Source: Nitrosopumilus sp.
GTDB taxonomy: Bacteria > Pseudomonadota > Gammaproteobacteria > Xanthomonadales > SZUA-36
NCBI GenBank assembly: GCA_964225175.1
Contig: CAXQNK010000105.1
Span: forward strand, 15,120 to 79,119
Length of the DNA stretch: 64,000 bases
Direction: 5' to 3'
Part shown: positions 33,212-50,868 of the stretch, one piece after another
Position numbering within the stretch: the first letter of the stretch is position 1
Layout: each line of letters opens with the position of its first letter
Position numbers and translations under genes: made by a program
The notes under the pieces: generated by a model
The model's input: only the letters and a program-made list of their open reading frames with translations
What the model was told of the DNA's origin: nothing
Databases searched by the model: none

Positions 33212-33240
33212 TTGACATGTACAATAGTTGTATAGATAAT
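33212..33240 (+). promoter_or_regulatory. near-consensus sigma-70 promoter (TTGACA-17-GATAAT) with TGTACA/TGTATA in the spacer
   Basis: TTGACA at 33212-17, a 17-nt spacer (TGTACAatagtTGTATA) and GATAAT at 33235-40. It points away from arfB, toward 33241 and onward. Confidence 0.55.
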
Positions 33241-33246
33241 AAGGCA

Positions 33247-33358
33247 CGTTGAGTTCATTTGTGTATATGTTTCTGTTCTAGACACATCCCCCGGGACTCT
33301 GCCTATCTCCCTCAGGCAGACCCATGCTTAACCCCGGCCCCCTGCCGGGGTTTTTTTT
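33247..33358 (+). ncRNA. candidate small RNA or terminated leader transcript (about 110 nt)
   Basis: Bounded by the promoter above and an intrinsic terminator. An internal hairpin CTGCCT-9 nt-AGGCAG lies at 33299-33319. No plausible ORF. No known family recognised. Confidence 0.35.
33331..33358 (+). terminator. rho-independent terminator (plus strand)
   Basis: CCCCGGC-cccct-GCCGGGG followed by eight T. No plus-strand gene ends nearby. Confidence 0.75.
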
Positions 33359-33374
33359 GGAGGCCAAAAAAAGT

Positions 33375-33398
33375 TGTACAAAAAGTTTACTTTGTACA
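33375..33398. promoter_or_regulatory. TGTACA-N12-TGTACA candidate LitR operator overlapping the litR promoter
   Basis: TGTACA at 33375-80 and 33393-98, each extended to TTGTACA. A third TGTACA lies at 33416-21. A candidate promoter TTTACT (33386-91)-17-TATGCT (33409-14) encloses the second site. Confidence 0.5.
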
Positions 33399-33459
33399 GT
33401 TTACCGTTTATGCTATGTACACATTATGAATCGAAAATATGTGAAACAACGTACATTTT

Positions 33460-34383
33460 ATGGCGACCAACCCTGACAGTGAGGCGGGTACTTTCTTCCC
33501 CATCAGGACAGTCTCGGACCTGACGGGCGTTAACCCGATTACACTGCGTGCCTGGGAGCGGCGGTACGGCCTGCTGAGGCCGATCCGAAAAGAAAGTGGG
33601 CACCGTCTCTACACGCAGGAACACATCGATCTTGTCAACCAGGTCGTGGGCCTGCTTGACCGGGGCATGCGCATCGGCCAGGTCAAGGCGCACCTTGACG
33701 CCCGGGATGAGGCCAACGCAAGTCAGGGCGAAGGTGACATTTGGCGCCGCTACCGAGACAAAATGGTGGCGGCAGTCATCTGTTTCGATGAGGGCAGCCT
33801 CGAAGAAACGTACGGTGAGGCCTTATCGCTCTATCCGGTTTCCACGGTCACAGAGCGATTGGTTACCCCCCTGCTGAAGGAACTGGGTCGGCGGTGGGTC
33901 GAAGGCGAGGGGAGTGTCGCCGAAGAGCACTTCTTCGCCTTTTATTTGCGTAACAAGCTGGGCGCGCGTTTCCATCACCGGTTCAGGACTACCCGTGGCA
34001 CACGCCTGCTGATGGCTTGCCTTCCGGGGGACCGGCATGAGACGGGCCTGCTGCTCTTTGCCCTGGCCGCCAACGATGCGGGATTTGATACCACCTTGTT
34101 GGGTGCGGACATGCCGCTGGAAGAGTTGCCGGCCGCCGTCAAAAAAACAGCGAGTCGGGCCGTGATTCTCTCAGGAACGCTGCAGCCGACCGCTGAAGTG
34201 CTCGAGCGAGAGCTGCCTGCCTTGGTGCGCAACCTGGCTGTGCCGCTATACATCGGCGGGCAGGCTTCCACCCGGGCTGCCGATGCAATTCGCCGGGCCG
34301 GCGCCGAGGTGTTGGGTATCGATATTCAACAGGGCATCAGCCGGTTGATCGATAAGACCGCTCCGCTCGGGGCCGTTGTCTAA
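33460..34383 (+). CDS. litR: MerR-family, adenosylcobalamin-binding light-responsive regulator (LitR/CarH type)
   Basis: N-terminal MerR HTH (FPIRTVSDLTGVNPITLRAWERRYGLLRP). The C-terminal B12-binding domain has W-x9-EH (RRWVEGEGSVAEEHF) and the D-x-H-x-x-G loop (PGDRHETG), then ...VILSG... and ...YIGGQ. Confidence 0.85.
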   Translation: MATNPDSEAGTFFPIRTVSDLTGVNPITLRAWERRYGLLRPIRKESGHRLYTQEHIDLVNQVVGLLDRGMRIGQVKAHLDARDEANASQGEGDIWRRYRDKMVAAVICFDEGSLEETYGEALSLYPVSTVTERLVTPLLKELGRRWVEGEGSVAEEHFFAFYLRNKLGARFHHRFRTTRGTRLLMACLPGDRHETGLLLFALAANDAGFDTTLLGADMPLEELPAAVKKTASRAVILSGTLQPTAEVLERELPALVRNLAVPLYIGGQASTRAADAIRRAGAEVLGIDIQQGISRLIDKTAPLGAVV

Positions 34384-34394
34384 GGACCTCCAAG

Positions 34395-35495
34395 ATGGCG
34401 CGAGTATTTCCCTCTGCAGATTCCCTGACTCCGCGCAACTCGGGCCCGATCGGCTGGGCCGAACTTGGCCTCGTGCCAGACTCGGTCATCAGGGCTGCCA
34501 TTCGCCGCCTCAACAGGCAGCGACTGGTGGAAATAAGCGCTGCAAACGTCGAGGCCAGTTCATCGCAACTCAACGCGTTTGTGGACCACATGCGCGCAGC
34601 GCCGGTCGCTCTCGTACCCGACTTGGCCAACGAACAACACTACGAAGTGCCGGCATCGTTTTTCGGTCATGTCATGGGCTTGCATCGAAAATACAGCTGT
34701 TGTTTCTGGCCTGACAAGGACAGTTCGCTTGATGGCGCTGAGTCAGCCGCCCTGGCCATCACCAGCGAACGGGCCGGTCTGGAGGATGGACAAAACATTC
34801 TCGAGCTTGGCTGTGGGTGGGGCTCGCTCACATTGTGGGTTGCAGAGCATTATCCGAACAGTCGAATTCTTGGGGTTTCCAATTCGAGCAGCCAGCGGGA
34901 GTACATCACGGAACAGGCACGCCAACGCGGGCTGAACAACGTTGAGATTATGACCTGCGATATGAACCAGTTCGATGCCGGGCGTCAATTCGACAGGGTT
35001 GTATCCATCGAAATGTTTGAACATATGAGGAACTACGAGGAGATGTTCAAACGAGTGGCCGGCTGGCTCAATGACCGCGGGCGTTTTTTTATGCACGTAT
35101 TCTGCCATCGAAGTACGGCCTATCCGTTCGAGGACAATGGTCCATCTGACTGGATGAGCCGTCACTTTTTCTCCGGCGGAATGATGCCCTCCGCTGACCT
35201 GCCGCTGAGATTCCAGCGTCATCTGAAGCTGGAACGCCAATGGCTTTGGAACGGCTGTCATTACGAGAAAACGGCAAATGCCTGGCTGCGAAACATGGAT
35301 CAGCACCGCGGTGACATCATGCCCATTCTGGAAAACACTTACGGTTCGTCAGACGCTGCCATGTGGTTTCAGCGCTGGCGTATTTTTTTCATGGCGTGCG
35401 CGGAGCTTTTTGGGCATGACGAGGGCCGCGAGTGGTTCGTGAGCCATTACCGGTTTAAGCCCCACACCGGCACTTCGGGGAGCGACAAGCGATGA
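34395..35495 (+). CDS. cyclopropane-fatty-acyl-phospholipid synthase-like SAM-dependent methyltransferase (paralogue 1)
   Basis: 366 aa. Contains HYEVPASFFGHVMG, the SAM motif ILELGCGWGSLTLWVA, and SIEMFEHM. Confidence 0.85.
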   Translation: MARVFPSADSLTPRNSGPIGWAELGLVPDSVIRAAIRRLNRQRLVEISAANVEASSSQLNAFVDHMRAAPVALVPDLANEQHYEVPASFFGHVMGLHRKYSCCFWPDKDSSLDGAESAALAITSERAGLEDGQNILELGCGWGSLTLWVAEHYPNSRILGVSNSSSQREYITEQARQRGLNNVEIMTCDMNQFDAGRQFDRVVSIEMFEHMRNYEEMFKRVAGWLNDRGRFFMHVFCHRSTAYPFEDNGPSDWMSRHFFSGGMMPSADLPLRFQRHLKLERQWLWNGCHYEKTANAWLRNMDQHRGDIMPILENTYGSSDAAMWFQRWRIFFMACAELFGHDEGREWFVSHYRFKPHTGTSGSDKR

Positions 35496-36055
35496 CTCGA
35501 GTATTAATCAATTTTATTTGTTTCCAGCTCGGCTGGTTTGCATGCGTCATCAGCGCGGCCGAGGGCGTTCCAGTTGTCGGGTTGGCCATGGCTGCCGCCG
35601 CCGTTGGTTTGCACCTGTTTCTTGCCCGCGACGCCCAGGCGGAGGGGTTGCTGGTTGTGTTTGCCGTGATCATAGGCCTGGGCTACGACAGTCTGCTGGT
35701 GGCTTCCGGCTGGATTCGTTACCCGAGCGGTATGGTCATTCCCGGCCTGGCACCCTACTGGATTCTTGCCATCTGGGCGCTTTTCGCAACCACGCTAAAC
35801 CTGTCCATGGCCTGGCTGCGCGATCGTTTGTGGCTTGCAGCGGCCTTGGGGGCCTTGTTTGGACCCCTGAGTTATCTCGGCGGCGGGCGTCTTGGAGGGC
35901 TGGAATTTCTGCAGTCCACGGCCGCATTGACAGCGCTCTCTGCGGGTTGGGCTGTACTGATGCCCCTGATGCTGATGCTTTCGGTGCGCTTTGACGGAAC
36001 TGCGAGAGTTGCGGAAATGGAATTGGTGTCTTCCGCCCAGAGGCAGGAGTCGTGA
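35492..36055 (+). CDS. DUF2878 family membrane protein
   Basis: 187 aa and polytopic. It overlaps both neighbours by 4 nt and has the usual genomic association with cfa/DUF1365 clusters. Confidence 0.6.
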   Translation: MTRVLINFICFQLGWFACVISAAEGVPVVGLAMAAAAVGLHLFLARDAQAEGLLVVFAVIIGLGYDSLLVASGWIRYPSGMVIPGLAPYWILAIWALFATTLNLSMAWLRDRLWLAAALGALFGPLSYLGGGRLGGLEFLQSTAALTALSAGWAVLMPLMLMLSVRFDGTARVAEMELVSSAQRQES

Positions 36056-36843
36056 TTGACTGGTCCTCAGCCTTGGGGGCAGGGGGAGCGCTTCTCCTGT
36101 TTGCCTTCCTGTTTTGGGGTGTGAGCCTGGTACGCAATGACGTCAGTATAGTGGACTCATTGTGGTCCCTCATGTTCCTGCTGTCTGCTGGCGCGTATGC
36201 GCTACTTATTGAGCAACCGGGCCCGCGAACAGGCTGGTTGATTATCCTGGTGGCGGTGTGGGCGTTTCGATTGTCGATCTACATTACGTGGCGTAATCAC
36301 GGCGAACCCGAAGATTATCGCTACCAGGCCATCAGGCGCCGAAACCAGCCTGGTTTCAGATTCAAAAGCCTGTACCTCGTCTTTGTGCTGCAGGCGGCAC
36401 TGGCCTGGTTGATCAGCCTGCCCCTGATGGCTGCCATCAGCGGTCAATCCACGCCCGGGTTGCTCGATTACATCGGTATCGCATTGTGGACGGTCGGCGT
36501 TCTTTTCGAGGCCATTGGCGACTGGCAACTGTCCCGTTTCCGGCGCAACCCGGACAACCGCGGCAAGGTGATGGACACGGGGTTGTGGCGATACACGCGG
36601 CATCCGAACTATTTTGGGAACTTTACCCTGTGGTGGGGGTTTTACTTCATCGCCTGCTCCGCAGGCGGAGTCTTGACCGTCCTCTCGCCCATCTTGATGT
36701 CCGTCCTGCTCCTGCGCGTGTCGGGTGTCGCGCTGCTTGAAAAGAGCATCGGCGAGCGGCGTCCGGCATACGCTGACTACATCAGGTCTACAAATGCGTT
36801 TTTTCCCGGGCCGCGCAAGCGCTATGAGGTATCGGGGTCATGA
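36052..36843 (+). CDS. DUF1295 (steroid 5-alpha-reductase/ICMT-like) membrane protein
   Basis: 263 aa with the motif GLWRYTRHPNYFGNFTLWWGFY. Confidence 0.7.
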   Translation: MIDWSSALGAGGALLLFAFLFWGVSLVRNDVSIVDSLWSLMFLLSAGAYALLIEQPGPRTGWLIILVAVWAFRLSIYITWRNHGEPEDYRYQAIRRRNQPGFRFKSLYLVFVLQAALAWLISLPLMAAISGQSTPGLLDYIGIALWTVGVLFEAIGDWQLSRFRRNPDNRGKVMDTGLWRYTRHPNYFGNFTLWWGFYFIACSAGGVLTVLSPILMSVLLLRVSGVALLEKSIGERRPAYADYIRSTNAFFPGPRKRYEVSGS

Positions 36844-37370
36844 ACGTTAGGGTCCATCGCTCGCTCATGGCACTGGTCGCCTGGTCGCTGGGCGCCATCG
36901 GCTGCAGTTCAGTGCAGCCGCTTGAGCCGGTCTCAAGCGTCGATCTCGAACGATTCATGGGTGACTGGTATGTCATTGCAAACATTCCCACGTTGTTGGA
37001 GAAAGGCGCGCACAACGCCATCGAGTCCTACCAGCTCAATGCCGACGGCTCAATCGCCACTACATTTACTTATCGGGCCGGTGGTTTTGATGGCCCTGAA
37101 AAAACGTACCATCCGCGTGGTTTCGTGAGCAGCGAATCCAATGCGGTTTGGGGCATGCGCTTTGTTTGGCCCATCAAGGCGGATTATCGTATTGTGTATC
37201 TCGATGCGGACTACAGCGTCACAATTATCGGTCGAAACAAAAGAGACTTTGTGTGGTTAATGGCCCGGACTCCAAGCATTCCTGATGCCGAATACCAGCG
37301 CTTGGTGGCCTTGATTGTAGATATGGGATACGACGGCCAAAAGCTTAACAAGGTGCCCCAGGAATGGTAA
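36840..37370 (+). CDS. blc: bacterial lipocalin (Blc-like outer-membrane lipoprotein)
   Basis: Lipobox LGAIGC followed by the lipocalin signature VDLERFMGDWYVIANIP. Confidence 0.8.
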   Translation: MNVRVHRSLMALVAWSLGAIGCSSVQPLEPVSSVDLERFMGDWYVIANIPTLLEKGAHNAIESYQLNADGSIATTFTYRAGGFDGPEKTYHPRGFVSSESNAVWGMRFVWPIKADYRIVYLDADYSVTIIGRNKRDFVWLMARTPSIPDAEYQRLVALIVDMGYDGQKLNKVPQEW

Positions 37371-38344
37371 AAGGCCAGCGGGCCGGCGTCTGGCGCCGCA
37401 GGTTCAACGCCATGCGGCTCTGGTTCGACGCGGGCATGGTTGAGTTCGACCCTGAAGCAAGTGAGGTCAAGCGCGTCGACTGGCTGAGGACACTTCCTTT
37501 CGTGCTGGTGCACGTGGCGTGTTTGCTGGTGTTCGTCGTGGGCTGGAGTCCGATAGCGGTTGCAGTCGCTGTGCTGCTGTACGCGGTGCGCATGTTTGCA
37601 ATCACCGGGTTTTATCACCGCTATTTCTCACACCGAAGCTTTAAGACCTCACGCTTCGCGCAATTCCTGTTTGCCGTGCTCGGTGCCGCCTCGGTCCAAC
37701 GCGGTCCCATCTGGTGGGCTGCGCACCATCGGCATCACCATGCTGAAAGTGAGCAGGCCGATGATCCGCACTCACCGGTGCAACATGGGTTCCTCTGGTC
37801 GCACACGGGTTGGTTTTTGTCCCGTTCCCATTTTGGAATCCGGCCCGAACGCGTGGCAGACCTCATGCGTTTCCCTGAACTGAAGCTCCTTGATCGCTTC
37901 GATATCCTCGTGCCGGTTCTGCTCGCCGTGGGCCTGTTGTGGTTGGGGAATTACCTCGAATCAGCGGCGCCGCACCTGGGAACCAGCGGCGGGCAGATGC
38001 TGATCTGGGGGTTTTTCGTATCTACCGTGGTGCTGTACCACGCCACCTTCACCATTAACTCGCTGGCGCATCGCTGGGGCAGACGGCGATATGCGACCTC
38101 CGATGAGAGTCGCAATAACTTCTGGCTCGCACTGCTGACCCTGGGCGAGGGATGGCACAACAACCATCATCATTATCCTGCGTCTGCCCGGCAGGGGTTC
38201 TACTGGTGGGAGATCGACCTGACGTGGTATGGGTTGCGCCTGCTGGCTTTGTTCGGAGTTGTCTGGGACCTGAAACCCGTCCCCAGTTCACGGCGTGACA
38301 GCGGCAAAATTGTCACCGCGGACGCAGAGCGTGCATCCGCATGA
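37364..38344 (+). CDS. membrane acyl-CoA/acyl-lipid (delta-9 type) fatty acid desaturase
   Basis: Three His boxes: HRYFSH, HHRHHH and HNNHHH. Confidence 0.85.
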   Translation: MVKGQRAGVWRRRFNAMRLWFDAGMVEFDPEASEVKRVDWLRTLPFVLVHVACLLVFVVGWSPIAVAVAVLLYAVRMFAITGFYHRYFSHRSFKTSRFAQFLFAVLGAASVQRGPIWWAAHHRHHHAESEQADDPHSPVQHGFLWSHTGWFLSRSHFGIRPERVADLMRFPELKLLDRFDILVPVLLAVGLLWLGNYLESAAPHLGTSGGQMLIWGFFVSTVVLYHATFTINSLAHRWGRRRYATSDESRNNFWLALLTLGEGWHNNHHHYPASARQGFYWWEIDLTWYGLRLLALFGVVWDLKPVPSSRRDSGKIVTADAERASA

Positions 38345-39636
38345 AAATTGCGGTGGTGGGCACAGGCATTGCGGGCAACACGGTCGCTCATCACCTGTCG
38401 AAAAAGCATGAGGTCACGGTCTTCGAGGCCGCGAGCCGAATCGGCGGACATACCAACACGGTTACTGTCGAGCACGCGGGCCGCGATTACGCAGTGGACA
38501 CCGGGTTTATCGTCTACAACGAAAGGACCTACCCACATTTCATTCGCCTGCTGGACAAGCTGGGGGTGGAATGGCAAGACAGCGACATGAGTTTCAGCGT
38601 GCAGGACGCGCGCTCTGGGCTGGAGTACAACGGGACCAGCCTGAACGCCTTGTTTGCCCAGAGAAGAAACCTGCTGCGTCCCAGTTTTCATCGAATGATT
38701 CGCGACATTCTACGTTTTAACAGGGAAGCTTCCACCCTGCTGGCGCCAGGGGCGGCGGAGCCGACCCTGCAGGAATTTCTGGATGAGCGCGCGTATTCAA
38801 GAGCCTTTGTTGATCACTACATCATCCCAATGGGGGCGGCGATCTGGTCAGCAAAGCCCGCAATCATGCGGCATATGCCCGCACGGTTTTTTGCTCGTTT
38901 TTTCCATAACCATGGCATGCTGAGTGTCAATGATCGGCCTGTCTGGCGTGTTATTAAAGGAGGGTCGAAGCAGTACGTCGACCGGTTGGTCCGTGACCAT
39001 CTGGACCGCATTCGAACTCGGGCGCCCGTGCAATCTGTTCAACGCATGCAAGAACACGTCACAGTTCGGGTGGCGGGCGCAGAGCCCGAGCACTTCGATC
39101 ATGTCTTTCTGGCTTGCCACAGTGACCAGGCGCTGGCAATGCTGGCGGACCCCAGCGAACAGGAGACATCGGTGCTGGGTGCAATGACTTACCAGAAAAA
39201 CGAGGCCGTGTTACACACCGATGCCAGCATCATGCCGCGTCGCAGAAGGGCCTGGGCCGCATGGAACTATCACCTGCTGGAGGATTCCCAGGAACGCGTG
39301 GCGGTCACATACAACATGAACATCCTCCAGGGGCTGGATGCGCCTGTGCAGTTCTGCGTAAGCCTCAATAACACCGCGGCGATCAATCCGGAGCGGATCA
39401 TTCAAAGCTTTGATTATGAACACCCGGTGTTCACAGCGCAGGCCGTCGCCGCACAGCAGCGTCATGCCGATATCAATGGCGAGCGAGTCAATGGCTTCAA
39501 GGGCCGCACCTGGTATTGCGGTGCTTATTGGCGTTATGGTTTCCATGAAGACGGGGTGGTGAGCGCCCTGACAGCGCTCGAGAATTTCAACCAGGGGCAG
39601 GCGGATGCAGAGCGCAATCTACGAAGGGCGAGTTAG
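38341..39636 (+). CDS. FAD-dependent amine-oxidase/phytoene-desaturase-like oxidoreductase (UfaD-like candidate)
   Basis: 431 aa with the dinucleotide fold MKIAVVGTGIAGNTVAHHL. It lies immediately upstream of DUF1365 and a CFA-synthase-like gene. Confidence 0.8.
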   Translation: MKIAVVGTGIAGNTVAHHLSKKHEVTVFEAASRIGGHTNTVTVEHAGRDYAVDTGFIVYNERTYPHFIRLLDKLGVEWQDSDMSFSVQDARSGLEYNGTSLNALFAQRRNLLRPSFHRMIRDILRFNREASTLLAPGAAEPTLQEFLDERAYSRAFVDHYIIPMGAAIWSAKPAIMRHMPARFFARFFHNHGMLSVNDRPVWRVIKGGSKQYVDRLVRDHLDRIRTRAPVQSVQRMQEHVTVRVAGAEPEHFDHVFLACHSDQALAMLADPSEQETSVLGAMTYQKNEAVLHTDASIMPRRRRAWAAWNYHLLEDSQERVAVTYNMNILQGLDAPVQFCVSLNNTAAINPERIIQSFDYEHPVFTAQAVAAQQRHADINGERVNGFKGRTWYCGAYWRYGFHEDGVVSALTALENFNQGQADAERNLRRAS

Positions 39637-40378
39637 ACACAGGCGCTCGGTACCCTCGAAGCACGCTTTCGAGTACCGCCTGTTCATGGTTTACCTGGAT
39701 CTCGACGAGCTGGACGAAGTGTTTCAAGGTCGCTGGCTGTGGTCTACCCGTCAATGCACGGTCGCTCGCTTCAAGCGTGAAAACCACCTGGGTGACCCGC
39801 GCCAGCCGCTGAAAGAGGCGGTGCGTGAGCTCGTCGAACAAAGAGAAGGGCAACGTCCCGCCGGCCCCATCCGTTTGCTGACCCACCTCAGCTACTTTGG
39901 ATACTGTTTCAACCCTGTGAGCTTCTATTACTGCTTTTCAAATGACGAGCGACTGGAGTGGATTGTCGCTGAGGTTAATAACACTCCATGGGGTGAGCGG
40001 CATTGTTACGTGATGGATGCGCGCCAGGACCAGCGCGAGGAAGGTCGCATGAGGCATCAGCCGGTCAAAGCCATGCACGTCTCACCGTTCATGCCGATGG
40101 ACGTCGCCTATGACTGGCGATTTTCAACACCCGGAACCTCCCTGAGTGTTCACATGGAAAACCACCAGCCTGGCGGCAAGATTTTTGATGTCACCCTGGC
40201 ATTGGATCGAACGCCTGTCACCGGGCGAACGCTGGCCCGCGTGTTGATGGTTTACCCACTGATGACTTTGCGGGTCATCTGGGGCATCCACTGGCAGGCA
40301 TTCAAGCTTTGGCTTAAACGCGTGCCGGTCTATGATCACCCAGCGAAAGCTGTGACCACGCGAGGAGAGAAACTGTGA
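39605..40378 (+). CDS. DUF1365 family protein (UfaO-like candidate)
   Basis: 257 aa with the typical N-terminus MQSAIYEGRVRHRRSVPSKHAFEYRLFMVYLDLDEL. It overlaps the upstream gene by 32 nt. Confidence 0.75.
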   Translation: MQSAIYEGRVRHRRSVPSKHAFEYRLFMVYLDLDELDEVFQGRWLWSTRQCTVARFKRENHLGDPRQPLKEAVRELVEQREGQRPAGPIRLLTHLSYFGYCFNPVSFYYCFSNDERLEWIVAEVNNTPWGERHCYVMDARQDQREEGRMRHQPVKAMHVSPFMPMDVAYDWRFSTPGTSLSVHMENHQPGGKIFDVTLALDRTPVTGRTLARVLMVYPLMTLRVIWGIHWQAFKLWLKRVPVYDHPAKAVTTRGEKL

Positions 40379-41625
40379 AATCCGTTAGCCTGGCTTCACA
40401 AGAGCATCTTTCAGTGACACCCAAACCCGGCATGCTGGAGTCCCTGGCATGTCGCCTGGTTCTCAGGCAACTTGTTCAGCTGGAACATGGTCGCCTCACC
40501 TTGGTGGACCGTGGCGAGGAGCTTCACTTTGGCCAGGCGGACGAACACGCTGAGCTCAAGGTTCAGCTTACGGTTAAAGATCCTTCGTTTTATGCGGACA
40601 TCGCCTTTGGCGGATCGATCGGCGCAGGAGAGGCTTACATGGCAGGGGCCTGGACCTGCGATGATCTGGTTAGCCTGGTGCGAATGTTGGTTAGAAACCG
40701 CTCCGTCCTCGATGGCATGGAGGGGGGCTCGGCGCGTCTGACCCGCCCACTTCAGAAATTGTTCCACTGGATCAACAGGAACACGCGAGAAGGTGCCCGG
40801 CGAAATATTTCTGCGCACTACGACCTGGGCAATGCGTTTTTTGCCCTTTGGCTGGACGAGTCGATGATGTATTCCTCGGCCATGTTTCCGGAGCCGCAAA
40901 CCAGCCTCGCCCAAGGGCAACTCCACCGGCTTGAAGCCGTGTGCAAGAAGCTCGACCTCAAACCTGATGATCACGTTCTCGAGATTGGAACCGGGTGGGG
41001 CGGGTTCGCGATCCACGCCGCTGCCCGATACGGTTGCCGGATCACAACGACGACCATTTCCCGGGAACAACATGATCTGGCCCGCCAACGCATCAGGGCG
41101 GCAGGGCTCGAGGACCGCATCACCCTGCTGCTGGAGGACTACCGGGATCTCGAGGGTCAATTCGATAAACTGGTCTCCCTCGAGATGATCGAGGCCATTG
41201 GGGCGGATCAGTTCGACACCTATTTTGCTCGCTGCGGCGAGTTGTTGAAGCCTGGCGGTCGCATGCTCATCCAGGCCATTACCATCGCCGATGAACTGTT
41301 TGACGACTATCGCCGCAATGTTGATTTCATTCAGCGATATATTTTCCCCGGAAGTTGTTTGCCCGCACTGTCGGCCATGCTGGATTCGATCAAGCGACGT
41401 TCAAGATTGTTGGTGACCGGTGTCGAGGATATCGGGATTGATTACGCCAGGACCCTGAACATGTGGAGGTCAAATTTCTTCGCTGCCATCGAAGAAGTTC
41501 GCGACCAGGGGTTTTCTGAGGAATTCATTCGCATGTGGGACTTCTATCTCTGTTACTGCGAGGGGGGCTTCCTCGAACGATCCATCAGTGACGTCCACCT
41601 GGTCGCTGAAAAACCGACCTTCTGA
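40375..41625 (+). CDS. cyclopropane-fatty-acyl-phospholipid synthase family methyltransferase (paralogue 2; UfaM-like candidate)
   Basis: 416 aa. Contains HYDLGNAFFALWLDESMMYSSA, the SAM motif VLEIGTGWGGFA, and SLEMIEAIG. Confidence 0.9.
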   Translation: MKSVSLASQEHLSVTPKPGMLESLACRLVLRQLVQLEHGRLTLVDRGEELHFGQADEHAELKVQLTVKDPSFYADIAFGGSIGAGEAYMAGAWTCDDLVSLVRMLVRNRSVLDGMEGGSARLTRPLQKLFHWINRNTREGARRNISAHYDLGNAFFALWLDESMMYSSAMFPEPQTSLAQGQLHRLEAVCKKLDLKPDDHVLEIGTGWGGFAIHAAARYGCRITTTTISREQHDLARQRIRAAGLEDRITLLLEDYRDLEGQFDKLVSLEMIEAIGADQFDTYFARCGELLKPGGRMLIQAITIADELFDDYRRNVDFIQRYIFPGSCLPALSAMLDSIKRRSRLLVTGVEDIGIDYARTLNMWRSNFFAAIEEVRDQGFSEEFIRMWDFYLCYCEGGFLERSISDVHLVAEKPTF

Positions 41626-41628
41626 ACC

Positions 41629-41781
41629 ATGCGCCGGGAAAGTCATCGCAGGGTGCTGCCCTCGAAGGACTGCCCAGTGTGTGGTCTGTCCTTTAATTGG
41701 CGGCGCAAATGGGCGGCCCACTGGGAGTCCGTCCGCTATTGTTCAGAGCGCTGTCGCAGGAATCGCAGGGTTTCGAAATGA
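41629..41781 (+). CDS. DUF2256 zinc-ribbon protein (50 aa; below the ORF-track cutoff)
   Basis: Hand translation gives [50 protein letters not shown]. The C-x2-C ... WRRKW ... YCS-x2-C pattern is typical of DUF2256. Its TGA overlaps the ATG of the next gene (ATGA). Confidence 0.7.
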
Positions 41782-43325
41782 ATGCACAAGCGTGTCGCTG
41801 CATGCGCTTGGTGCTGGGTGACCAATTGAACCGGGAGCACTCCTGGTTCAGCCATGTGCACAATGACGTGGTTTACGTATTCGCGGAACTGCGCCAGGAG
41901 ACCGATTACGTCCGCCATCATGCACAGAAAGTGGTCGCTTTTTTTGCAGCCATGAAGGCGTTTTCCGATGAGCTTGAATCGGCAGGACACCGCACGCTGT
42001 ATCTCGATCTGGATCACACGCAGGACGATGTCGATCTGCCGGCACTCCTGCAGCGCCTCTTCACCGAGTGGGGTGTCTCCCGCTTTGAGTACCTGCTTCC
42101 CGACGAGTATCGACTTCGGCGTCAATTGGCCGAATTTTCAGAAAAACTGGATATGGACACAGCCGCCCTTGACACTGAGCACTTCCTGCTTCCGTTCGAT
42201 GTTCTCGGTGAGTGGTTCGATGCGGGTAAAAAGACCCGCATGGAGCATTTTTATCGCCGGATGCGCAGACACCTGGACATCCTGATTGATGATCAGGGTC
42301 AACCGGTTGGTGAGCGTTGGAATTTTGATACTGAAAACCGCAAGAAGCTCCCGTCATCACAGTCGATCCCGCCTGTGCTGCGGCTGAACAACCCAACAGA
42401 GCCGATCAGGGCCCGAATTGAGCGGCATGGCATTCAGACCATTGGCAATTTCCAGGATGATCTGCAATGGCCGGTGAATGCCAGCCAGGCGCGTAGGGTG
42501 ATGAACCACTTTATCGAGCACTGCCTCCCCGATTTTGGTCGTTTTCAGGACGCGCTTTCCACGCGAGACCCCTGGCTGTTTCACAGCCGCTTGTCCTTTG
42601 CCCTGAACGCCAAGATTCTCTCTCCGCGTGAGCTCGTGGACAGCGTCATGGCGGCTTGGCAAAGGGACAGGCAACGTTATCCGCTGGCTTCGATCGAGGG
42701 GTTTATTCGCCAGGTCATCGGCTGGCGAGAATTCATGCGTGGTATCTACTGGACCTACATGCCGGGGTACGCCACCCGAAATCACTTGGGGAGCAAGCGC
42801 AAGCTGCCGCGATTCTTCTGGGATGGAAAAACCGATATGGCCTGCATGGCACATGCCATCGGACAATCCCTTGATCATGCCTACGCGCACCACATCCAAC
42901 GTCTCATGGTCACGGGCAATTTCGCCTTGCTTGCGGGGATCGACCCCGACGAGGTGGATGCCTGGTACCTGGGCATTTATATCGATGCGGTGGAGTGGGT
43001 TGAAATGCCTAATACCAGGGGCATGAGCCAGTTCGCCGATGGTGGCGTCATTGCGAGCAAGCCCTATTGCTCCTCGGGGAACTACATCAACAAGATGAGC
43101 GACTATTGCGCACAGTGCAGTTACCGGGTGAAAGATAAAACGGGTCAACAGGCCTGTCCCTTCAACAGCCTATATTGGCACTTCATGATCCGGCACCGGG
43201 ACGAGCTCTCTCGTAACCCGCGTATCGGTATGATCTACCGAAGCTGGGACCGAATGAACGAGGAACACCGGGACGGCGTTCTGAAGACAGCGGAGGCAAT
43301 ACTGGACCAACTCGACGATCTCTGA
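41778..43325 (+). CDS. cryptochrome/photolyase family protein, FeS-BCP / (6-4) photolyase-like (COG3046)
   Basis: Trimmed to [18 protein letters not shown]. It shows family-wide similarity ([23 protein letters not shown]; [10 protein letters not shown]) and a C-terminal Cys cluster ([40 protein letters not shown]) consistent with a [4Fe-4S] site. Confidence 0.85.
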
Positions 43326-43423
43326 GATCGGGATATCGATGAACACTGTCTCCGCCGTCGGCGCATGGCGGCTCGACTGGCCTTCCATTACACTGGCGCG
43401 AACTCCGAACCCCTGGACCTCCA

Positions 43424-45787
43424 ATGCCGAAACCGTTTCCAAAGCCACTTGCCTGGGTCGTCTGCCTGTTGGCTCTTGCCGCCTGTGAGCCGCAACGGGC
43501 GCCCGCACCGAAATATGCAGAACCAGCGAAGTCCGGCGCATTGCAATGGCCGGTTTGGGTGGCGTCTTATATCGAGGAGCACCTCGCCGCACATCCACAG
43601 TTTGCGGTCATGCAAGGCCGCCATGAGTTTGACGGGCAATTGCCGGACTGGAGCCGAGAGGGCATCGCCCGCGAGATCAGCCGGCTGCACGAGGCGCGGG
43701 CTGCAGCCCTGGCTTTCGAAGACGCTAGCATGACGGCTGAGCAGAGATTTCAGAAACGATACCTGGTCGCATGGATTGATCATGACCTGTTCTGGGCCGA
43801 GAAAGCGCGCTGGCCTTTTCGCAATCCTCAGTTTTACCTTGGTTGGCTCAACGATTCGCTGGACCCAAGCCCCTTCATTACGCTGGATTACGCTCCGAAA
43901 GCGTTGCGATTGCAGGCTTTTACGCGCTATCTGAACAATATCCCACGCGCAGCGGAACAGATTCAGGACAATCTCGAGATGCCCATGCCGCTGACGTGGT
44001 TACAGCTGGGTATCGACGCATTCCAGGGCTATGCCGACTACTTCGAGGCTGATGTGCCCGCGATCTGGAACGACGTAGAGGATCCAAAACTCCAGTCCGA
44101 ATTTGTCCGAGCAAACACTACAGCGGTCGCGGCCATGAGGCAGCTCGCGAGCTGGCTCGAGAGCCATCGATCCACCGCTACCTCGGACTTTGCTCTCGGT
44201 TCGGAGCTTTTCAAACAGATGCTGTGGGACACTGAGCGGGTTGATATCAGCCTGGCCGACCTCGAGGCGATTGGGCGTGCGGACATGCAGCGGAATCTGG
44301 ACGCCTTGCGGGATGCTTGTGGCGCATTTGCCCCCGGGGCCAGCGTGCAAGACTGTTTCCAGCGCATGAGCAGTCGGAAGTCCGATGATGGTCCGGTCAT
44401 GAGCGCTCGACGGCAGCTGGGAGAAATCAGGGAATTCATGGTGAGCGAGGACCTCGTGACCATACCCGGCATCGAGGAGGCGCTTGTCGAGGAGGCTCCG
44501 CCCTATGCCCGCTCAAATTCCGCCTACATTACGATTCCCGGTCCCTGGGAAAAAGATCAGCCCTCGGTGTACTACATCTCGCCCCCCAACCCGGAGTGGC
44601 CTGAAGACGTCCAGGCGGACTACATCCCTGGCGAGGCGGATTTGCTGTTCACTTCCGTTCACGAAGTCTGGCCAGGCCATTTTCTCAATTTTCTGCATGC
44701 CAAACGGTCCCCATGGATTTTCGGGCGCGCGTTCGTGGGTTATGCCTTCGGGGAGGGCTGGGCCCATTACACCGAAGAAATGATGCTCGAGGCCGGCCTC
44801 AGGGGTGCAGATCCGGAAACACGGATAGGGCAGCTGTCCAATGCCCTGCTGCGAAATGCCCGTTTTCTCTCGTCAATAGGCTTGCATACCCAGGGCTGGT
44901 CCGTGGAGGCATCCCAGCGGTTCTTCGTCGAGGAGGCTTACCAGTCAGAAGGCACCGCGATTCAGCAGGCGGCTCGGGGCACTTACGATCCAGGTTATCT
45001 GAATTACACACTTGGCAAGCTGCTGATTCTCCAGTTGCGTGAAGACTGGACGGCCACACGGGGTGGGCGAGATGCATGGAAAGCATTCCATGATCGCTTT
45101 CTTTCGTTTGGCGGGCCGCCGATACCCCTCGTCAGGCAAGCCATGCTGGATGAGCCGGAGCCTGTGGCTCGATTCCCCGGGGCGGTTCGCGACGATCGAC
45201 ATTCCGGTCACCGGCTCAGTTCATGGAGCTGGGATTGTGAAGATGGTCAACGGTTGGTGCTGACCCGTGTCGGCGTCGAGGGCGAGGGCGACCCGCGGGT
45301 GCTGTTCGATTCGCAGGGCGCGCATCAACTCGAACGTGAACCCGTCGCTTCCGGCGTGAAGCACGCCGGTGCCGGACGAGTCTTCTGGAGCAAGGGCAAA
45401 GAGGCCAGCTTTGAAAACCAGGGGCTGAGAACGAGTTGCCGGCTCAATGACTTTGATAGTGAATTCGAAGACGCCAAGCTGCGCGGCGCCGATTTCCGCG
45501 CCCTGGGTGTCGGGTCGGACTGGTCCCTGGAACTGTTCAGTGCGCGGCCCAGCAGGTTGCTCACATCATCTGATGCGCACTGGATTGAGTTTGATGCCGG
45601 CGAGGCTGCGCCCTTGCCGGATGGTTCCGGCAGCGTCTTCAGCGCAAAGCGTGTCGCTCAGACTCTTGTCGTGGAAGTCCGGGCCGGTCCCTGCGAGCAC
45701 GTCTCAAGCGGTCATGAGTTCGAGACAAAGGTGCGCGTGTTGCATGCCGGCAGAGTTTTCGTTGGTTGCGGCAAGGCACTGCATTAA
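43424..45787 (+). CDS. DUF885 family lipoprotein fused to a C-terminal MliC-like domain and a further Cys-containing domain
   Basis: Lipobox (LLALAAC). The DUF885 body carries HEVWPGHFLNF. From about 45180 the sequence reads WDCEDGQRLVL...ASGVKH...VFWSKGKEASF...CR (MliC pattern), then ALGVGSDWSLEL...GPCEHVSSGHEFETKVRVLHAGRVFVGCGKAL. Confidence 0.75.
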   Translation: MPKPFPKPLAWVVCLLALAACEPQRAPAPKYAEPAKSGALQWPVWVASYIEEHLAAHPQFAVMQGRHEFDGQLPDWSREGIAREISRLHEARAAALAFEDASMTAEQRFQKRYLVAWIDHDLFWAEKARWPFRNPQFYLGWLNDSLDPSPFITLDYAPKALRLQAFTRYLNNIPRAAEQIQDNLEMPMPLTWLQLGIDAFQGYADYFEADVPAIWNDVEDPKLQSEFVRANTTAVAAMRQLASWLESHRSTATSDFALGSELFKQMLWDTERVDISLADLEAIGRADMQRNLDALRDACGAFAPGASVQDCFQRMSSRKSDDGPVMSARRQLGEIREFMVSEDLVTIPGIEEALVEEAPPYARSNSAYITIPGPWEKDQPSVYYISPPNPEWPEDVQADYIPGEADLLFTSVHEVWPGHFLNFLHAKRSPWIFGRAFVGYAFGEGWAHYTEEMMLEAGLRGADPETRIGQLSNALLRNARFLSSIGLHTQGWSVEASQRFFVEEAYQSEGTAIQQAARGTYDPGYLNYTLGKLLILQLREDWTATRGGRDAWKAFHDRFLSFGGPPIPLVRQAMLDEPEPVARFPGAVRDDRHSGHRLSSWSWDCEDGQRLVLTRVGVEGEGDPRVLFDSQGAHQLEREPVASGVKHAGAGRVFWSKGKEASFENQGLRTSCRLNDFDSEFEDAKLRGADFRALGVGSDWSLELFSARPSRLLTSSDAHWIEFDAGEAAPLPDGSGSVFSAKRVAQTLVVEVRAGPCEHVSSGHEFETKVRVLHAGRVFVGCGKALH

Positions 45788-45800
45788 AGAGCCCTGAAAG

Positions 45801-47219
45801 ATGAAACTGGAATTTTTTGGAGCCGCTGGCGAAGTCACGGGTTCCTGTCATGTTCTGCGAGTAGGCGAGCGCTCCGTTCTGCTCGATTGTGGCCTGATAC
45901 AGGGCGGTCGCTCGGCTGAGGCCCGAAATCACGACCCTTTCCCCTTCGATGTTGACACCATTGATGCGGTTATTCTTTCGCATGCCCATCTTGATCACAG
46001 CGGTCGTTTGCCCCTGCTGGTTCGTCGGGGTTATCGCGGCCCGATTTATGCGCAGGAGGCGACCTGCGAGCTGCTCGCCATCCTGCTGGCAGATGCAGCG
46101 AAGCTGGAGCAGAGAGATGCCGAATATCTGAGTCAAAAATTTGGGCGGCGCATCAAGCCTTTATTTACGGTTGAACAGGGTGCGCAAGTCATTCGGCAAC
46201 TTGAGCCGCTGAAATACGGCACCAGAACCCCCGTCGCGAACGGCGTGACGATCAGGTATCGAGATGCCGGCCACATCCTGGGTTCCTGCACACTGGAGGC
46301 CTGGCTTACGGAACAACAGATAGAGCGAAAGCTGGTTTTTTCAGGCGACCTTGGTCAGTATGACACGCCGATCCTGAGAGACCCCGAGCCGATTGACAGT
46401 GCCGATGTGGTGATCATGGAATCGACCTATGGGGATCGGCGGCATCGCAACCGGGAAAGCACGATCGAGGAAATTGGCAGCATCATCGCCCAGGCCGGTG
46501 CGGATCGAGGCAATATCCTGATCCCAGCATTCGCAGTCGGTAGAAGCCAGGAACTGCTCTACTTGCTCGGTAAGCACTACGAAGAATGGGGCCTGAACCG
46601 ATTTCGAATCTACCTCGACAGCCCGATGGCGATCGAAACCTCTGAAGTTTACTGGAATTATGCCCAGTTGCATGATGCTGAAGCGGCCAGGCTGGCCCGG
46701 AAAAACGGCGGAATGCCTTTGCTGCCCAACCTGCAGCTGAGTCGTTCGACCGAGGAATCGATCGCCATCAACCGCTTCAAATCAGGCGCTATCATTATCG
46801 CGGGAAGCGGGATGTGCAATGGCGGGCGCATCGTTCATCACCTCAAGAACCATTTGGAACGTGAGGCCCATCATGTTGTCATCGTGGGTTACCAGGCGCG
46901 GGGTTCGCTGGGCAGGCGGCTCGTGGAGGGCGAAGACACCGTTCGCATCCATGGCAAGGACCTGAGGGTTAGAGCGCGGATCCACACCGTTGGCGGCCTG
47001 TCCGCACATGGCGACCAGGACGACCTTGCCAGCTGGTATGAGTGCATGGCTGGGGATCCGCCCGTTTTCCTTGTGCATGGCGAGGAACGGGCACGAGAAA
47101 ATTTTGCCGAGTACCTCCGCCGGCGAAACGAAGCCACGGTCGGTTTGCCATCACCCGGAGACGTACTGGACCTTGAAAGCATGAGTCTCAAGGTGTCCGG
47201 ATCGCCGGGTGAGCCCTGA
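45801..47219 (+). CDS. MBL-fold beta-CASP family RNA-metabolising hydrolase
   Basis: 472 aa. Starts MKLEFFGAAGEVTGSCHVL and carries HAHLDHSGRLP. The beta-CASP and C-terminal regions include GLSAHGDQDDL. Confidence 0.85.
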   Translation: MKLEFFGAAGEVTGSCHVLRVGERSVLLDCGLIQGGRSAEARNHDPFPFDVDTIDAVILSHAHLDHSGRLPLLVRRGYRGPIYAQEATCELLAILLADAAKLEQRDAEYLSQKFGRRIKPLFTVEQGAQVIRQLEPLKYGTRTPVANGVTIRYRDAGHILGSCTLEAWLTEQQIERKLVFSGDLGQYDTPILRDPEPIDSADVVIMESTYGDRRHRNRESTIEEIGSIIAQAGADRGNILIPAFAVGRSQELLYLLGKHYEEWGLNRFRIYLDSPMAIETSEVYWNYAQLHDAEAARLARKNGGMPLLPNLQLSRSTEESIAINRFKSGAIIIAGSGMCNGGRIVHHLKNHLEREAHHVVIVGYQARGSLGRRLVEGEDTVRIHGKDLRVRARIHTVGGLSAHGDQDDLASWYECMAGDPPVFLVHGEERARENFAEYLRRRNEATVGLPSPGDVLDLESMSLKVSGSPGEP

Positions 47220-47332
47220 CGGTCGGGTGGATCATGGCGTTACCCGGGTGAGGAGTTAGCGGTGCCCGGCAGACTTCAGCCAAGTCATATTGCTATGCTT
47301 CAACTATTCGTGCTTGCCTGGAGGGGCTGTCA

Positions 47333-47863
47333 TTGAACAGTGGAAAGTTTAAATCCGGCGATCTTTTTCCCACCCTGGATGTCCGATCATCCGCCGACGA
47401 GCCCGTGGCCATCGCACGACCCGCGGACGGACGGTCTTGGTTGCTCTTGCTGGTTTACCGGGGTCGACACTGTCCACTGTGCACGCAATATCTCGAAACC
47501 CTAACGACCTTTACCGCCCGCCTTGCTGCAGCAGGAATTGAAGTGATCGCGCTTTCCGCAGACAGTCCGAATCAATTGACGGCTCACCTGGAGAATCTGA
47601 ATCTGGATTTTCCGGTGCATTGCGGCCTGACCGAATCGCAAATGGCCATGCTGGGTTTATATCGCTCGGAGCCACGATCCGCGGAAGAGACAGACCATGT
47701 GTTTCCTGAGCCTGGCCTGTTCGTGGTGAATGCCAATGGGCAGACGCAGATCGTTGATATTGCCAACAACCCGTTTACGCGTCCGGACCTTGAAATGCTG
47801 GTTTCCGGATTGGAGTGGCTACGCGAGGGCGGTGACCGATACCCAATTCGGGGAACGTATTAA
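47333..47863 (+). CDS. AhpC/TSA-type peroxiredoxin-like redoxin
   Basis: 176 aa with a TTG start. Contains LLLVYRGRHCPLCTQYL (thioredoxin-fold C-x2-C). Confidence 0.65.
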   Translation: MNSGKFKSGDLFPTLDVRSSADEPVAIARPADGRSWLLLLVYRGRHCPLCTQYLETLTTFTARLAAAGIEVIALSADSPNQLTAHLENLNLDFPVHCGLTESQMAMLGLYRSEPRSAEETDHVFPEPGLFVVNANGQTQIVDIANNPFTRPDLEMLVSGLEWLREGGDRYPIRGTY

Positions 47864-48597
47864 TAGGGGATCGTATTTCCATCCCAGTTCACAAAGCGCC
47901 CGCTCGATTCCGGCACACCATTGAGCACCACGTTTACGATTCGCTCTGCGCTCTTCTCAGCCGTGTAGAGTTTCTCCGGTTTGACATTCCCCTGGAATGG
48001 CCGTGAAAGCTCAGTGTCGGTCGTGCCGGGATGGATGGCCGTCACGCACAACCGGGGGTGTGTTCGGCGTGCCTCGATTGCCAGTGTTTTCAGGAACTGG
48101 TTAAGTGCCGCTTTCGATGACCGGTAACCGTACCAGCCGCCTATTCGGTTGTCCTCGATACTGCCGACCATGGCGGAGAGCACCGCAAAGTGACCCGGTT
48201 CACGCTTTGGGAATAGTGGAAGCAAGGCCTGCGCAACCAGCAAGGGACCGATGCTGTTGACGGCGAACAGGCGAGCAAGGGCATCTTGATGGCACTGCGC
48301 GAGAGACTTTTCAGGCTTAAGATCAGCTTCATGGAGTATGCCCGCGCAGTGGATCACCAAATCCACGGGTGGATTGATCCGGGAAGCGAACGCCCTCACG
48401 GACTCGGGTTGCGTGACATCAAGGCTGAGGCAGGACAGACGCGGATCATCGATCTCTTTCAGGGCCACGGCGGTCTGCGGGTCGCGCGCCGTGGCGCATA
48501 TGGCGCTTAAACCCTCCATGTCCAGGAGTTTTTTGGTGATGGCGAGCCCGATTCCCCGGTTTGCCCCCACGATGATGGCTGAGCTCGGCGTTTTCAT
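47860..48597 (-). CDS. short-chain dehydrogenase/reductase (SDR)
   Basis: 245 aa with cofactor motif IVGANRGIGLA and catalytic motif YRSSKAAL. Confidence 0.85.
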   Translation of the reverse strand: MKTPSSAIIVGANRGIGLAITKKLLDMEGLSAICATARDPQTAVALKEIDDPRLSCLSLDVTQPESVRAFASRINPPVDLVIHCAGILHEADLKPEKSLAQCHQDALARLFAVNSIGPLLVAQALLPLFPKREPGHFAVLSAMVGSIEDNRIGGWYGYRSSKAALNQFLKTLAIEARRTHPRLCVTAIHPGTTDTELSRPFQGNVKPEKLYTAEKSAERIVNVVLNGVPESSGRFVNWDGNTIPY

Positions 48598-50691: not shown

Positions 50692-50868
50692 GTTATGATT
50701 CGTGGAAGTCGTTGACTCTCGCTCCAGGTTCACACTTGTTTTCGCGGTATAGCTGAGCCCACATTGCGCGCAGTGGGAGGGGGTCGATATCCACGTGAGG
50801 GCTCAGGCCCAACTGCAGCTTGAGCCGCTCAGTTTCGATGGCCTGGCTGACACTCTGCAGTCTGTTCA
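50692..50868 (-). CDS. small hypothetical protein (58 aa; below the ORF-track cutoff)
   Basis: Hand translation gives MNRLQSVSQAIETERLKLQLGLSPHVDIDPLPLRAMWAQLYRENKCEPGARVNDFHES. The ATG is preceded by GGAGAGGAAATTGTC (a good SD). It is co-oriented with the photolyase and lies 94 nt upstream of it. Confidence 0.4.

Follow-up and report, generated by a model that had tools for sequence, protein, structure and literature searches.

The known class I CarH/LitR regulators mainly control carotenoid genes. Class I LitRs are adenosylcobalamin (AdoCbl) photoreceptors, whereas the class II LitRs of Pseudomonas keep the four-helix bundle only (PMC9758184). In P. mendocina, a light-induced, LitR-repressed polycistron of nine genes has been described (PME6650-PME6610), and the PplR1 regulon of P. 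putida KT2440 is alike (PMC9758184). The Pseudomonas unit contains the regulator, a photolyase, an SDR, an FAD oxidoreductase, ufaM, and hypothetical proteins, its start and stop codons overlap, and DNase footprinting of PplR1 and PmlR2 gave the operator consensus T(G/A)TACA-N12-TGTA(C/T)A (PMC9758184). The genes that are induced by blue light in Vibrio cholerae include those of a MerR-like regulator, members of the photolyase family, and a putative cyclopropane fatty acid (CFA) synthase (PMC5241685). In the furan fatty acid pathway of Cereibacter (Rhodobacter) sphaeroides and Rhodopseudomonas palustris, UfaM methylates cis-vaccenate chains on phospholipids, a second double bond is introduced by UfaD, an FAD protein resembling phytoene desaturases, and UfaO, a DUF1365 protein, closes the furan ring with oxygen from O2 (PMC7380195). 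Here we describe a locus of eleven genes, headed by a litR/carH gene and ended by a photolyase gene (phrB), in a 64,000-nt window of contig CAXQNK010000105.1 (assembly GCA_964225175.1), which comes from a marine gammaproteobacterium that is uncultured. The window is the whole stretch of DNA that was analyzed, and positions refer to it.

Our results indicate that the region is likely a light-derepressed operon for the synthesis of protective furan fatty acids and the repair of UV-damaged DNA. In the dark, an AdoCbl-loaded class I CarH/LitR repressor would sit on TGTACA hexamers over the promoter P2, about 50 nt upstream of litR, and in the light the cofactor would be photolysed and the repressor released. 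A single mRNA would then extend from litR to the photolyase gene or beyond, and translation of the downstream genes would be kept in step by stop and start codons that overlap or abut. From the unsaturated acyl chains of phospholipids, the UfaM-like methylase, the UfaD-like desaturase, and the UfaO-like oxygenase would make methylated furan fatty acids, which scavenge singlet oxygen and radicals. The FufM-like second methylase would probably add a second methyl group, and the delta-9 desaturase may supply or adjust the unsaturated substrate. DUF2878, DUF1295, and the Blc lipocalin are conserved partners, and our guess is that they serve membrane-embedded modification and the handling or trafficking of the altered lipids. 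DNA repair would be carried out by an iron-sulfur (FeS) cluster (6-4) photolyase with a small DUF2256 partner. Furan fatty acid genes and a (6-4) photolyase would thereby be joined to a B12-type photoreceptor within a single compact unit. The single transcript, the light response, the B12 dependence, and the lipid products are predicted from the anatomy of the locus, its protein families and motifs, the uniqueness of its operator, and synteny. A preliminary description had already read these genes as one light operon. The signature of the regulator, the operator-bearing promoter, the lack of any credible terminator inside the unit, and the conserved gene order bear this out, while the singularity of the fused set, the 3' end, and the labels of some members had to be revised.

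Gene organization and extent of the unit

Eleven co-directional open reading frames (ORFs) were found on the + strand at 33460-43325, using an ORF list and a script that reads stop and start codons (Table 1). From litR to phrB, the junctions measure +11, -4, -4, -4, -7, -4, -32, -4, +3, and -4 nt. The shared direction, the overlapping or abutting stop and start codons, and the lack of a credible internal terminator are the sequence features of a single operon. The eleven genes and every overlap and gap of the preliminary description were reproduced exactly, and each gene family that it named was confirmed by Pfam. The DUF2256 ORF (50 codons) lies below the 60-aa cut of the ORF list and was read from the sequence before its confirmation by Pfam. 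The photolyase was taken to start at the ATG at 41778, which forms the ATGA overlap, and not at the TTG of the longest ORF. In tblastn comparisons with about 100 related loci, alignments reached residues 1-5 for most of the chosen starts. For the first methylase, DUF1295, and the desaturase, the median first aligned residue is 19, 22, and 15, respectively, which makes their starts slightly less secure. None of the ten operon proteins tested, DUF2256 being left out, exceeded a curated NCBIfam cut-off. Shine-Dalgarno sequences are weak or absent for ufaD, DUF2256, and phrB; since the starts of these genes touch the preceding stop, termination-reinitiation coupling would fit.

Table 1. Features predicted in and around the litR-phrB locus, in order along the window.
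Feature	Position	Strand	Basis
P1, near-consensus sigma-70 promoter, TTGACA-17-GATAAT	33212-33240	+	Promoter scan, 11/12 matches
Predicted P1 transcript, about 110 nt; candidate small RNA or attenuating leader	33246-33360	+	Promoter then terminator, no ORF between
P2 and putative LitR operator	33375-33421	+	TGTACA at 33375, 33393, 33416 (spacings N12, N17)
litR/carH; MerR helix-turn-helix, B12 four-helix bundle, Rossmann B12 domain	33460-34383	+	Pfam MerR_1, B12-binding_2, B12-binding
First methylase; CMAS family, coclaurine-N-methyltransferase-like branch, probable FufM type	34395-35495	+	Pfam CMAS 3e-42
DUF2878 small polytopic membrane protein; ATGA overlap with first methylase	35492-36055	+	Pfam DUF2878 3e-41
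DUF1295 membrane protein; GTG start	36052-36843	+	Pfam DUF1295 1e-68
Blc-type lipocalin lipoprotein	36840-37370	+	Pfam Lipocalin_2 1e-38
Membrane fatty-acid desaturase, delta-9 (stearoyl-CoA desaturase) type	37364-38344	+	Pfam FA_desaturase 9e-22
UfaD-like FAD oxidase/desaturase	38341-39636	+	Pfam Amino_oxidase 6e-22 and NAD_binding_8
UfaO-like DUF1365 protein	39605-40378	+	Pfam DUF1365 2e-87
UfaM-like long-form CFA-synthase-family methylase; GTG start	40375-41625	+	Pfam CMAS 1e-82
DUF2256, 50 aa, four Cys	41629-41781	+	Pfam DUF2256 3e-19
phrB, FeS-BCP/CryPro (6-4) photolyase; ATGA overlap with DUF2256	41778-43325	+	Pfam DPRP 7e-72
DUF885-MliC lipoprotein, beta-CASP metallo-beta-lactamase-fold hydrolase, AhpC/TSA peroxiredoxin	43424-47863	+	After phrB, without terminator
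SDR, second photolyase unit	47860-48597	-	Convergent with the predicted light operon
CIA30-domain protein, second photolyase unit	48594-49121	-	Convergent with the predicted light operon
Class I CPD (cyclobutane pyrimidine dimer) photolyase, second photolyase unit	49161-50597	-	Convergent with the predicted light operon

The arrangement was compared with about 100 loci around UfaD homologues in public genomes (L001-L103) and with relatives of this genome (G-numbers). The order methylase-DUF2878-DUF1295-(DUF6134)-lipocalin-(desaturase)-ufaD-ufaO-ufaM was found in about 60 of 80 loci around UfaD homologues, and these clusters span Gammaproteobacteria, Burkholderiales, Methylophilaceae, and Nitrospira. 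The junctions are conserved as well: the ufaD and ufaO genes overlap by exactly 32 nt, out of frame (here 39605-39636), in 59 of 91 loci across three phyla, ufaO and ufaM by 4 nt in 45/77, the desaturase gene and ufaD by 4 nt in 23/38, and DUF2878 and DUF1295 by any length in 32/42. Because the neighbours, their order, and the overlaps are conserved in related loci, chance does not account for the tight packing in the window. An overlap of 32 nt is unusually stable for such a length.

The cluster is headed by litR in about 17 of these loci; in about 8, litR is divergent. The litR-to-ufaM block recurs, with its overlaps, in dozens of genomes of Gammaproteobacteria, Betaproteobacteria, and Nitrospirota. 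A Lysobacterales metagenome-assembled genome (MAG; L010) carries the identical eleven genes in identical order at 59-72% identity, and the order in the relative G015 is nearly identical, with DUF2878 not detected and the desaturase split. The comparison of synteny that the preliminary description had called for thus confirmed a gene order conserved in relatives, and the fusion of the whole set proved not to be confined to this genome. An arrangement unique to this genome was therefore rejected.

Among 40 relatives, 28 have ufaD. A CarH-like litR is present in 14 members of the same family, in most of them on the contig that carries ufaD. The FeS photolyase was also found in 14 of the 40, clearly linked to the lipid genes in G015 only, and two MAGs of the same genus (G001 and G002) carry ufaM-DUF2256(-phrB) at contig ends. 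Judged from these genomes, the photolyase tail is lineage-specific. DUF2878 is conserved beside the methylase in 43 loci. About 40 of about 100 loci carry the desaturase. Content differs even within the genus: G001 lacks the desaturase and carries DUF6134, G002 lacks both, and the present genome has the desaturase in the unit and DUF6134 elsewhere. The core members are the FufM-like methylase, DUF2878, DUF1295, the lipocalin, ufaD, ufaO, and ufaM, and the optional members are the desaturase, DUF6134, litR, and DUF2256-phrB. This split may guide the choice of a tractable organism for working out the remaining steps.

The preliminary description held that internal promoters or terminators splitting the unit would speak against it. 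In the scan, both were at or below the expectation from shuffled sequences, with 5 promoter-like sites against 6.2 expected and 11 terminator-like sites inside the unit against 16.2. The latter are short and GC-poor, and none comes near the quality of the terminator upstream of litR. A few observations nevertheless weigh against one unit of eleven genes. The sole promoter-like match on the + strand inside the unit (TTGGCT-16-TATGAT, 40309-40336) lies in ufaO, 40 nt before ufaM, and for R. sphaeroides a "potential promoter" inside ufaO has been mentioned for RSP1089, the gene that stands where ufaM does here (PMC7380195). In addition, no terminator follows phrB: there is no terminator-like site on the + strand at 42589-48000, and no hairpin was found in the 98-nt gap after the gene. 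The transcript may therefore run on into the DUF885, beta-CASP, and AhpC genes, which continue on the phrB strand, so that the unit may exceed eleven genes. The gap between DUF885 and beta-CASP is 13 nt, and AhpC and the convergent SDR gene share 4 nt at their 3' ends. The eleven-gene extent in the preliminary description is thus not set by any terminator, and the undefined 3' end is the weakest point of the claim.

It is possible, though on balance doubtful, that the eleven genes are not one unit of exactly that extent, and that the promoter-like site in ufaO drives ufaM-DUF2256-phrB or transcription reads through past phrB, giving shorter units or one of 13-14 genes. A separate 3' part would fit the relatives, in most of which phrB is unlinked to the lipid genes, as well as the R. 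sphaeroides report. However, the promoter-like matches are at chance level, and the 3-nt and 4-nt junctions flanking DUF2256 leave no intergenic room. A longer unit would be in line with the missing terminator and the close spacing of the three following genes. However, tblastn detected no homologues of DUF885, beta-CASP, or AhpC between phrB and the SDR gene in G002, G015, and L010, which suggests that the three were inserted locally.

Lipid-modification genes and photolyase

The ufaD, ufaO, and ufaM genes of the locus, in which an FAD desaturase, a DUF1365 protein, and a CFA-type methylase stand together, agree in family and order with RPA2571-2569 of R. palustris and RSP1091-1089 of R. sphaeroides. 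The UfaD-like protein has an amine-oxidase/phytoene-desaturase fold, matches RSP1091/RPA2571 in position, and has 582 relatives in public genome contigs. The nearest solved structure to the UfaM-like methylase is the CFA synthase 6BQC (2e-58), and the position of its gene is that of RPA2569 (ufaM). Several members that the preliminary description had left with generic names or as poorly characterised thus correspond to the published furan fatty acid enzyme types UfaD, UfaO, and UfaM (PMC7380195).

The first methylase shares 25% identity with the UfaM-like methylase. Its nearest solved structures are plant coclaurine N-methyltransferases (CNMTs; 6GKV, E 5e-73), compared with 1e-28 for CFA synthases. 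It had been called CFA-synthase-like, which is right for the CMAS family and not for the branch, which is CNMT-like. We take Arabidopsis LIME1 to be a member of this branch as well. FufM is 38% identical to LIME1 (PMC10940516); it converts the monomethyl furan acid to the dimethyl form and is 26% identical to UfaM (PMC7380195). Since the first methylase is CNMT-like and FufM resembles LIME1, the protein is, by this transitive evidence, probably a furan fatty acid methylase of the FufM type. A large homologue search with it returned generic "CFA synthase family" names only and no confirmation of FufM.

The other lipid genes gave the following results. In the desaturase, the His boxes HRYFSH, HHRHHH, and HNNHHH correspond to the three that mark delta-9 acyl desaturases. 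The lipocalin carries the lipoprotein signal LGAIG↓C, and its match to the NCBIfam Blc subfamily is below the cut-off. DUF1295 has a steroid-reductase/ICMT/PEMT-like fold with weak Pfam matches to Steroid_dh, ICMT, and PEMT, and no solved structural relative of it was found. Predicted counterparts of all four published furan fatty acid enzymes thus stand beside conserved, uncharacterised proteins, three of them here (DUF2878, DUF1295, and the lipocalin) and a fourth, DUF6134, in relatives.

Two points speak against the furan fatty acid assignment. The labels UfaD, UfaO, and UfaM rest on family and gene position, and the label FufM on transitive resemblance. Moreover, when the three genes that follow ufaO in R. 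sphaeroides (RSP1087-1089) were deleted in frame, the fatty acid profile stayed unchanged (PMC7380195). Because RSP1087-1089 are dispensable for furan fatty acids, the identity of the true UfaM and any role of DUF2878 or DUF1295 are not secure; RSP1088 may be a DUF2878 protein, judged by its size and position.

This dispensability would also suit a different role of the lipid genes, namely another protective change such as cyclopropane or methyl-branched chains, or the methylation of head groups by the first half (the CNMT-like methylase, DUF2878, and DUF1295). Both methylases score as CMAS family, the first is nearest to N-methyltransferases, DUF1295 weakly matches PEMT and ICMT, and a paralogous cluster in the genome pairs DUF2878 and DUF6134 with two S-adenosylmethionine (SAM) methyltransferases and a PEMT-like protein. 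We nevertheless regard such a role as improbable, since the ufaD-ufaO-ufaM trio stands in the characterised order with the conserved 32-nt overlap of ufaD and ufaO, and FufM, a furan-ring C-methylase, resembles LIME1, presumably of the same CNMT-like branch. In addition, we know of no other role for UfaD and UfaO. The synthesis of furan fatty acids therefore remains the preferred reading of the lipid genes.

The paralogous cluster lies on contig C33:7025-12632 and consists of a response regulator and a histidine kinase (by inspection), a DUF2878 paralogue, DUF6134, the two SAM methyltransferases, and the PEMT-like protein, a membrane methyltransferase. Lipid methyltransferases may thus be repeatedly accompanied by DUF2878 and DUF6134, and the grouping of DUF2878, DUF6134, methyltransferase, and PEMT points to a recurring module.

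The photolyase matched three solved structures over its full length, the V. cholerae (6-4) photolyase 7YKN (4e-201), R. sphaeroides CryB 3ZXS (7e-136), and A. tumefaciens PhrB 4DJA (3e-125). Its four 4Fe-4S cysteines are Cys356, 444, 447, and 460, and all are kept in the alignment with 7YKN. The cluster cysteines of PhrB are presumably C350/438/441/454, and the offset of 6 to the photolyase here rests on that numbering. The DUF2256 protein has cysteines at 15, 18, 38, and 42 (CxxC...CxxxC), and its gene starts 3 nt past the ufaM stop without a Shine-Dalgarno sequence. DUF2256 is paired with phrB in G001, G002, G015, and L010. No literature was found that joins the DUF families of the operon with photolyase, or CarH with cyclopropane.

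A second photolyase unit follows on the opposite strand (Table 1). In G002, phrB is directly followed by such a convergent CPD-photolyase/CIA30/SDR operon. A LitR box before the CPD photolyase operon was considered and rejected, as no TGTACA pair with N5 or N12 spacing occurs there and the lone TGTACA at 50492 is coding. A small ORF of about 55 codons, read by eye, lies just upstream of the CPD photolyase gene at approximately 50698-50868 (-).

Regulator, promoters, and candidate regulon

LitR has a MerR-type helix-turn-helix (Pfam MerR_1, E 1e-15, residues 14-80) followed by both B12 domains. In the four-helix bundle (B12-binding_2, E 6e-11), the W-x9-E-H motif is kept (RRWVEGEGSVAEEHF, compared with EAWHRGEIGVAEEHL in Thermus thermophilus CarH, TtCarH). 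In the second domain (B12-binding, E 2e-8), PGDRHETG, whose His is His192, aligns with PGERHEIG of TtCarH, and the GG motif is present as YIGGQ. Alignment with TtCarH (5C8D/3WHP) extends over the full length at modest identity (E about 1e-27). The regulator thus has the complete signature of an AdoCbl photoreceptor, and by homology its repression would depend on B12 and respond to light. Because both B12 domains are present, in contrast to the four-helix bundle alone in class II, LitR is of class I by sequence. Membership of class II was rejected because the His ligand is there along with the two B12 domains (no search for LOV genes was made). With 3.2 Mb in 145 contigs and a completeness of 95%, the genome encodes one cobalamin riboswitch, a PduO-type adenosyltransferase, and MetH, so that a supply of AdoCbl is plausible. 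No ChrR anti-sigma factor was found in this 95%-complete genome, and control by sigma-E/ChrR was rejected on this ground.

The litR gene is separated from a divergent arfB-like gene by 235 nt. The hexamer TGTACA occurs 12 times in the window, compared with 5.2 expected, and four of the copies lie upstream of litR within 33218-33421. At P2, the -35 element TTTACT (33386-33391) is bracketed by the N12 hexamer pair, and the third hexamer stands after the -10 element TATGCT (33409-33414). Transcription is predicted to start near 33421, leaving a litR leader of about 39 nt. The TGTACA-N12-TGTACA site at 33375-33398 has no second copy in the window or elsewhere in the genome. It matches the footprinted PplR1/PmlR2 consensus and overlaps the litR promoter, as an operator of the Pseudomonas type does. 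In G001, the geometry of P2 is retained with other bases (GATACA-N12-TGCACA-N17-TGTATA and TTTACA-17-TATAAT).

Upstream of P2, the promoter P1 carries TGTACA-N5-TGTATA in its spacer (33218-33234) and is conserved in G001. The pair TGTAYA-N5-TGTAYA, with its 11-bp period, precedes most orthologous litR genes, often in two copies, and the genome has four such sites in all, P1 included. Two details count against the light-operon reading: the N5 spacing that dominates in the orthologues sits at P1 and not at P2, and litR has no Shine-Dalgarno sequence.

A CarH look-alike, in which LitR no longer senses light through B12 and depends on a LOV-type partner photoreceptor or responds to redox or B12 status, has precedent in the Pseudomonas LitRs, which do not bind B12, need a short LOV protein, and control a like operator and cargo (PMC9758184), and the NCBIfam CarH model was matched far under its cut-off (136 vs 400 bits), but this is very unlikely because both B12 domains are present, unlike in class II, the W-x9-E-H, His ligand loop, and GG motifs are kept, and the genome encodes an AdoCbl-forming adenosyltransferase. 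The preferred regulator is thus a B12-dependent LitR of class I.

The predicted P1 transcript ends at a terminator with a stem at 33330-33352 and T8 (9 pairs, 7 of them GC), the strongest in the region. This terminator marks the 5' boundary of the operon and insulates it from upstream transcription. The transcript contains a hairpin with a C/U-rich loop (CUGCCU-AUCUCCCUC-AGGCAG) and folds with a z-score of -2.6. Its 3' half is kept, with two compensatory pairs, in G001 and L010, and the P1-type transcript of G001 measures about 270 nt. No Rfam family matched anywhere in the window at gathering thresholds; sub-threshold matches upstream of litR to anti-hemB and a betaproteobacterial toxic small RNA do not count as family membership. 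A widely conserved RNA family was also rejected, as the covariance model was strong only in G000 and G001, its training genomes. We read the P1 transcript as a candidate small RNA induced by light or, as a second possibility, as an attenuating leader.

Taken jointly, two further proposals are put forward tentatively. The first is that the upstream half of the cluster (the CNMT-like methylase, DUF2878, DUF1295, usually DUF6134, and the lipocalin) forms an undescribed pathway of lipid modification and handling, and the second is that P1 makes a light-induced small RNA with an anti-Shine-Dalgarno-like loop. The upstream half is stop/start-coupled to ufaD-ufaO-ufaM in dozens of genomes of three phyla. 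If the first proposal is true, such a pathway could extend the furan fatty acid route, for example by dimethylation and delivery to the outer membrane. If the second is true, a post-transcriptional arm would be added to a B12 photoreceptor regulon.

The other three TGTAYA-N5-TGTAYA sites of the genome (C128:3569, C56:4393, and C38:24386) stand one directly before a glutathione peroxidase gene, one before the gene of a PNPOx-like flavoprotein, and one 245 nt before that of a secreted protein without a Pfam match. These genes are candidate members of a LitR regulon, and the N5 sites at the glutathione peroxidase and flavoprotein promoters would make it a coherent photo-oxidative one. In a gammaproteobacterial MAG (L007, 14330-16531), genes for a glutathione peroxidase and a SOUL haem-binding protein come after the ufa cluster, as does a second litR copy on the opposite strand; this glutathione peroxidase echoes the one with a LitR box in the present genome.

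Comparison with known systems

The preliminary description named pairs of these genes as known near photolyases. A comparable light-induced LitR polycistron with start/stop overlaps had been published for Pseudomonas (PMC9758184). As there, a MerR/LitR repressor gene lies within a unit with a photolyase, an FAD oxidoreductase, ufaM, and hypothetical proteins, a TGTACA-N12-TGTACA operator lies over a sigma-70 promoter, and start and stop codons overlap or abut. The present locus differs in that its regulator is of class I, with both B12 domains and the His ligand, whereas that of Pseudomonas is of class II with a LOV partner. It also has an FeS (6-4) photolyase with DUF2256 in place of the CPD PhrB, while its CPD photolyase and SDR belong to the separate convergent operon. 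A FufM-like methylase, DUF2878, DUF1295, a lipocalin, and a delta-9 desaturase are added here. Light induction has been demonstrated in Pseudomonas, and here it is predicted from sequence alone.

Compared with the furan fatty acid pathway of R. sphaeroides and R. palustris, the locus has the same protein families and the same ufaD-ufaO-methylase order, and a role in photo-oxidative stress would be shared (PMC7380195). The R. sphaeroides genes are under sigma-E/ChrR, which responds to singlet oxygen (PMC7380195), whereas LitR would take this place here. In contrast to that pathway, all four enzyme types lie in one predicted operon with a photolyase, and are known here from their genes.

The regulator is similar to the class I CarH/LitR proteins of T. 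thermophilus, Myxococcus, and Bacillus megaterium in its domain order and in the W-x9-EH, (D/E)xHxxG, and GG motifs. Consistent with this, its gene adjoins a probably autoregulated operator, and hexamer pairs with an 11-bp period occur at P1 and at orthologous promoters. However, its cargo consists of fatty-acid modification genes and a (6-4) photolyase, and the spacing at P2 is of the Pseudomonas type, N12. The photolyase resembles the FeS-BCP/CryPro enzymes (PhrB 4DJA, CryB 3ZXS, and 7YKN) in full-length homology and in its four iron-sulfur cysteines, and differs in its predicted coupling to DUF2256 and in being joined to a lipid operon, from which it is unlinked in most relatives. Taken together, the locus is a well-formed further example of the LitR light operons known in Pseudomonas, and not a new kind of system.

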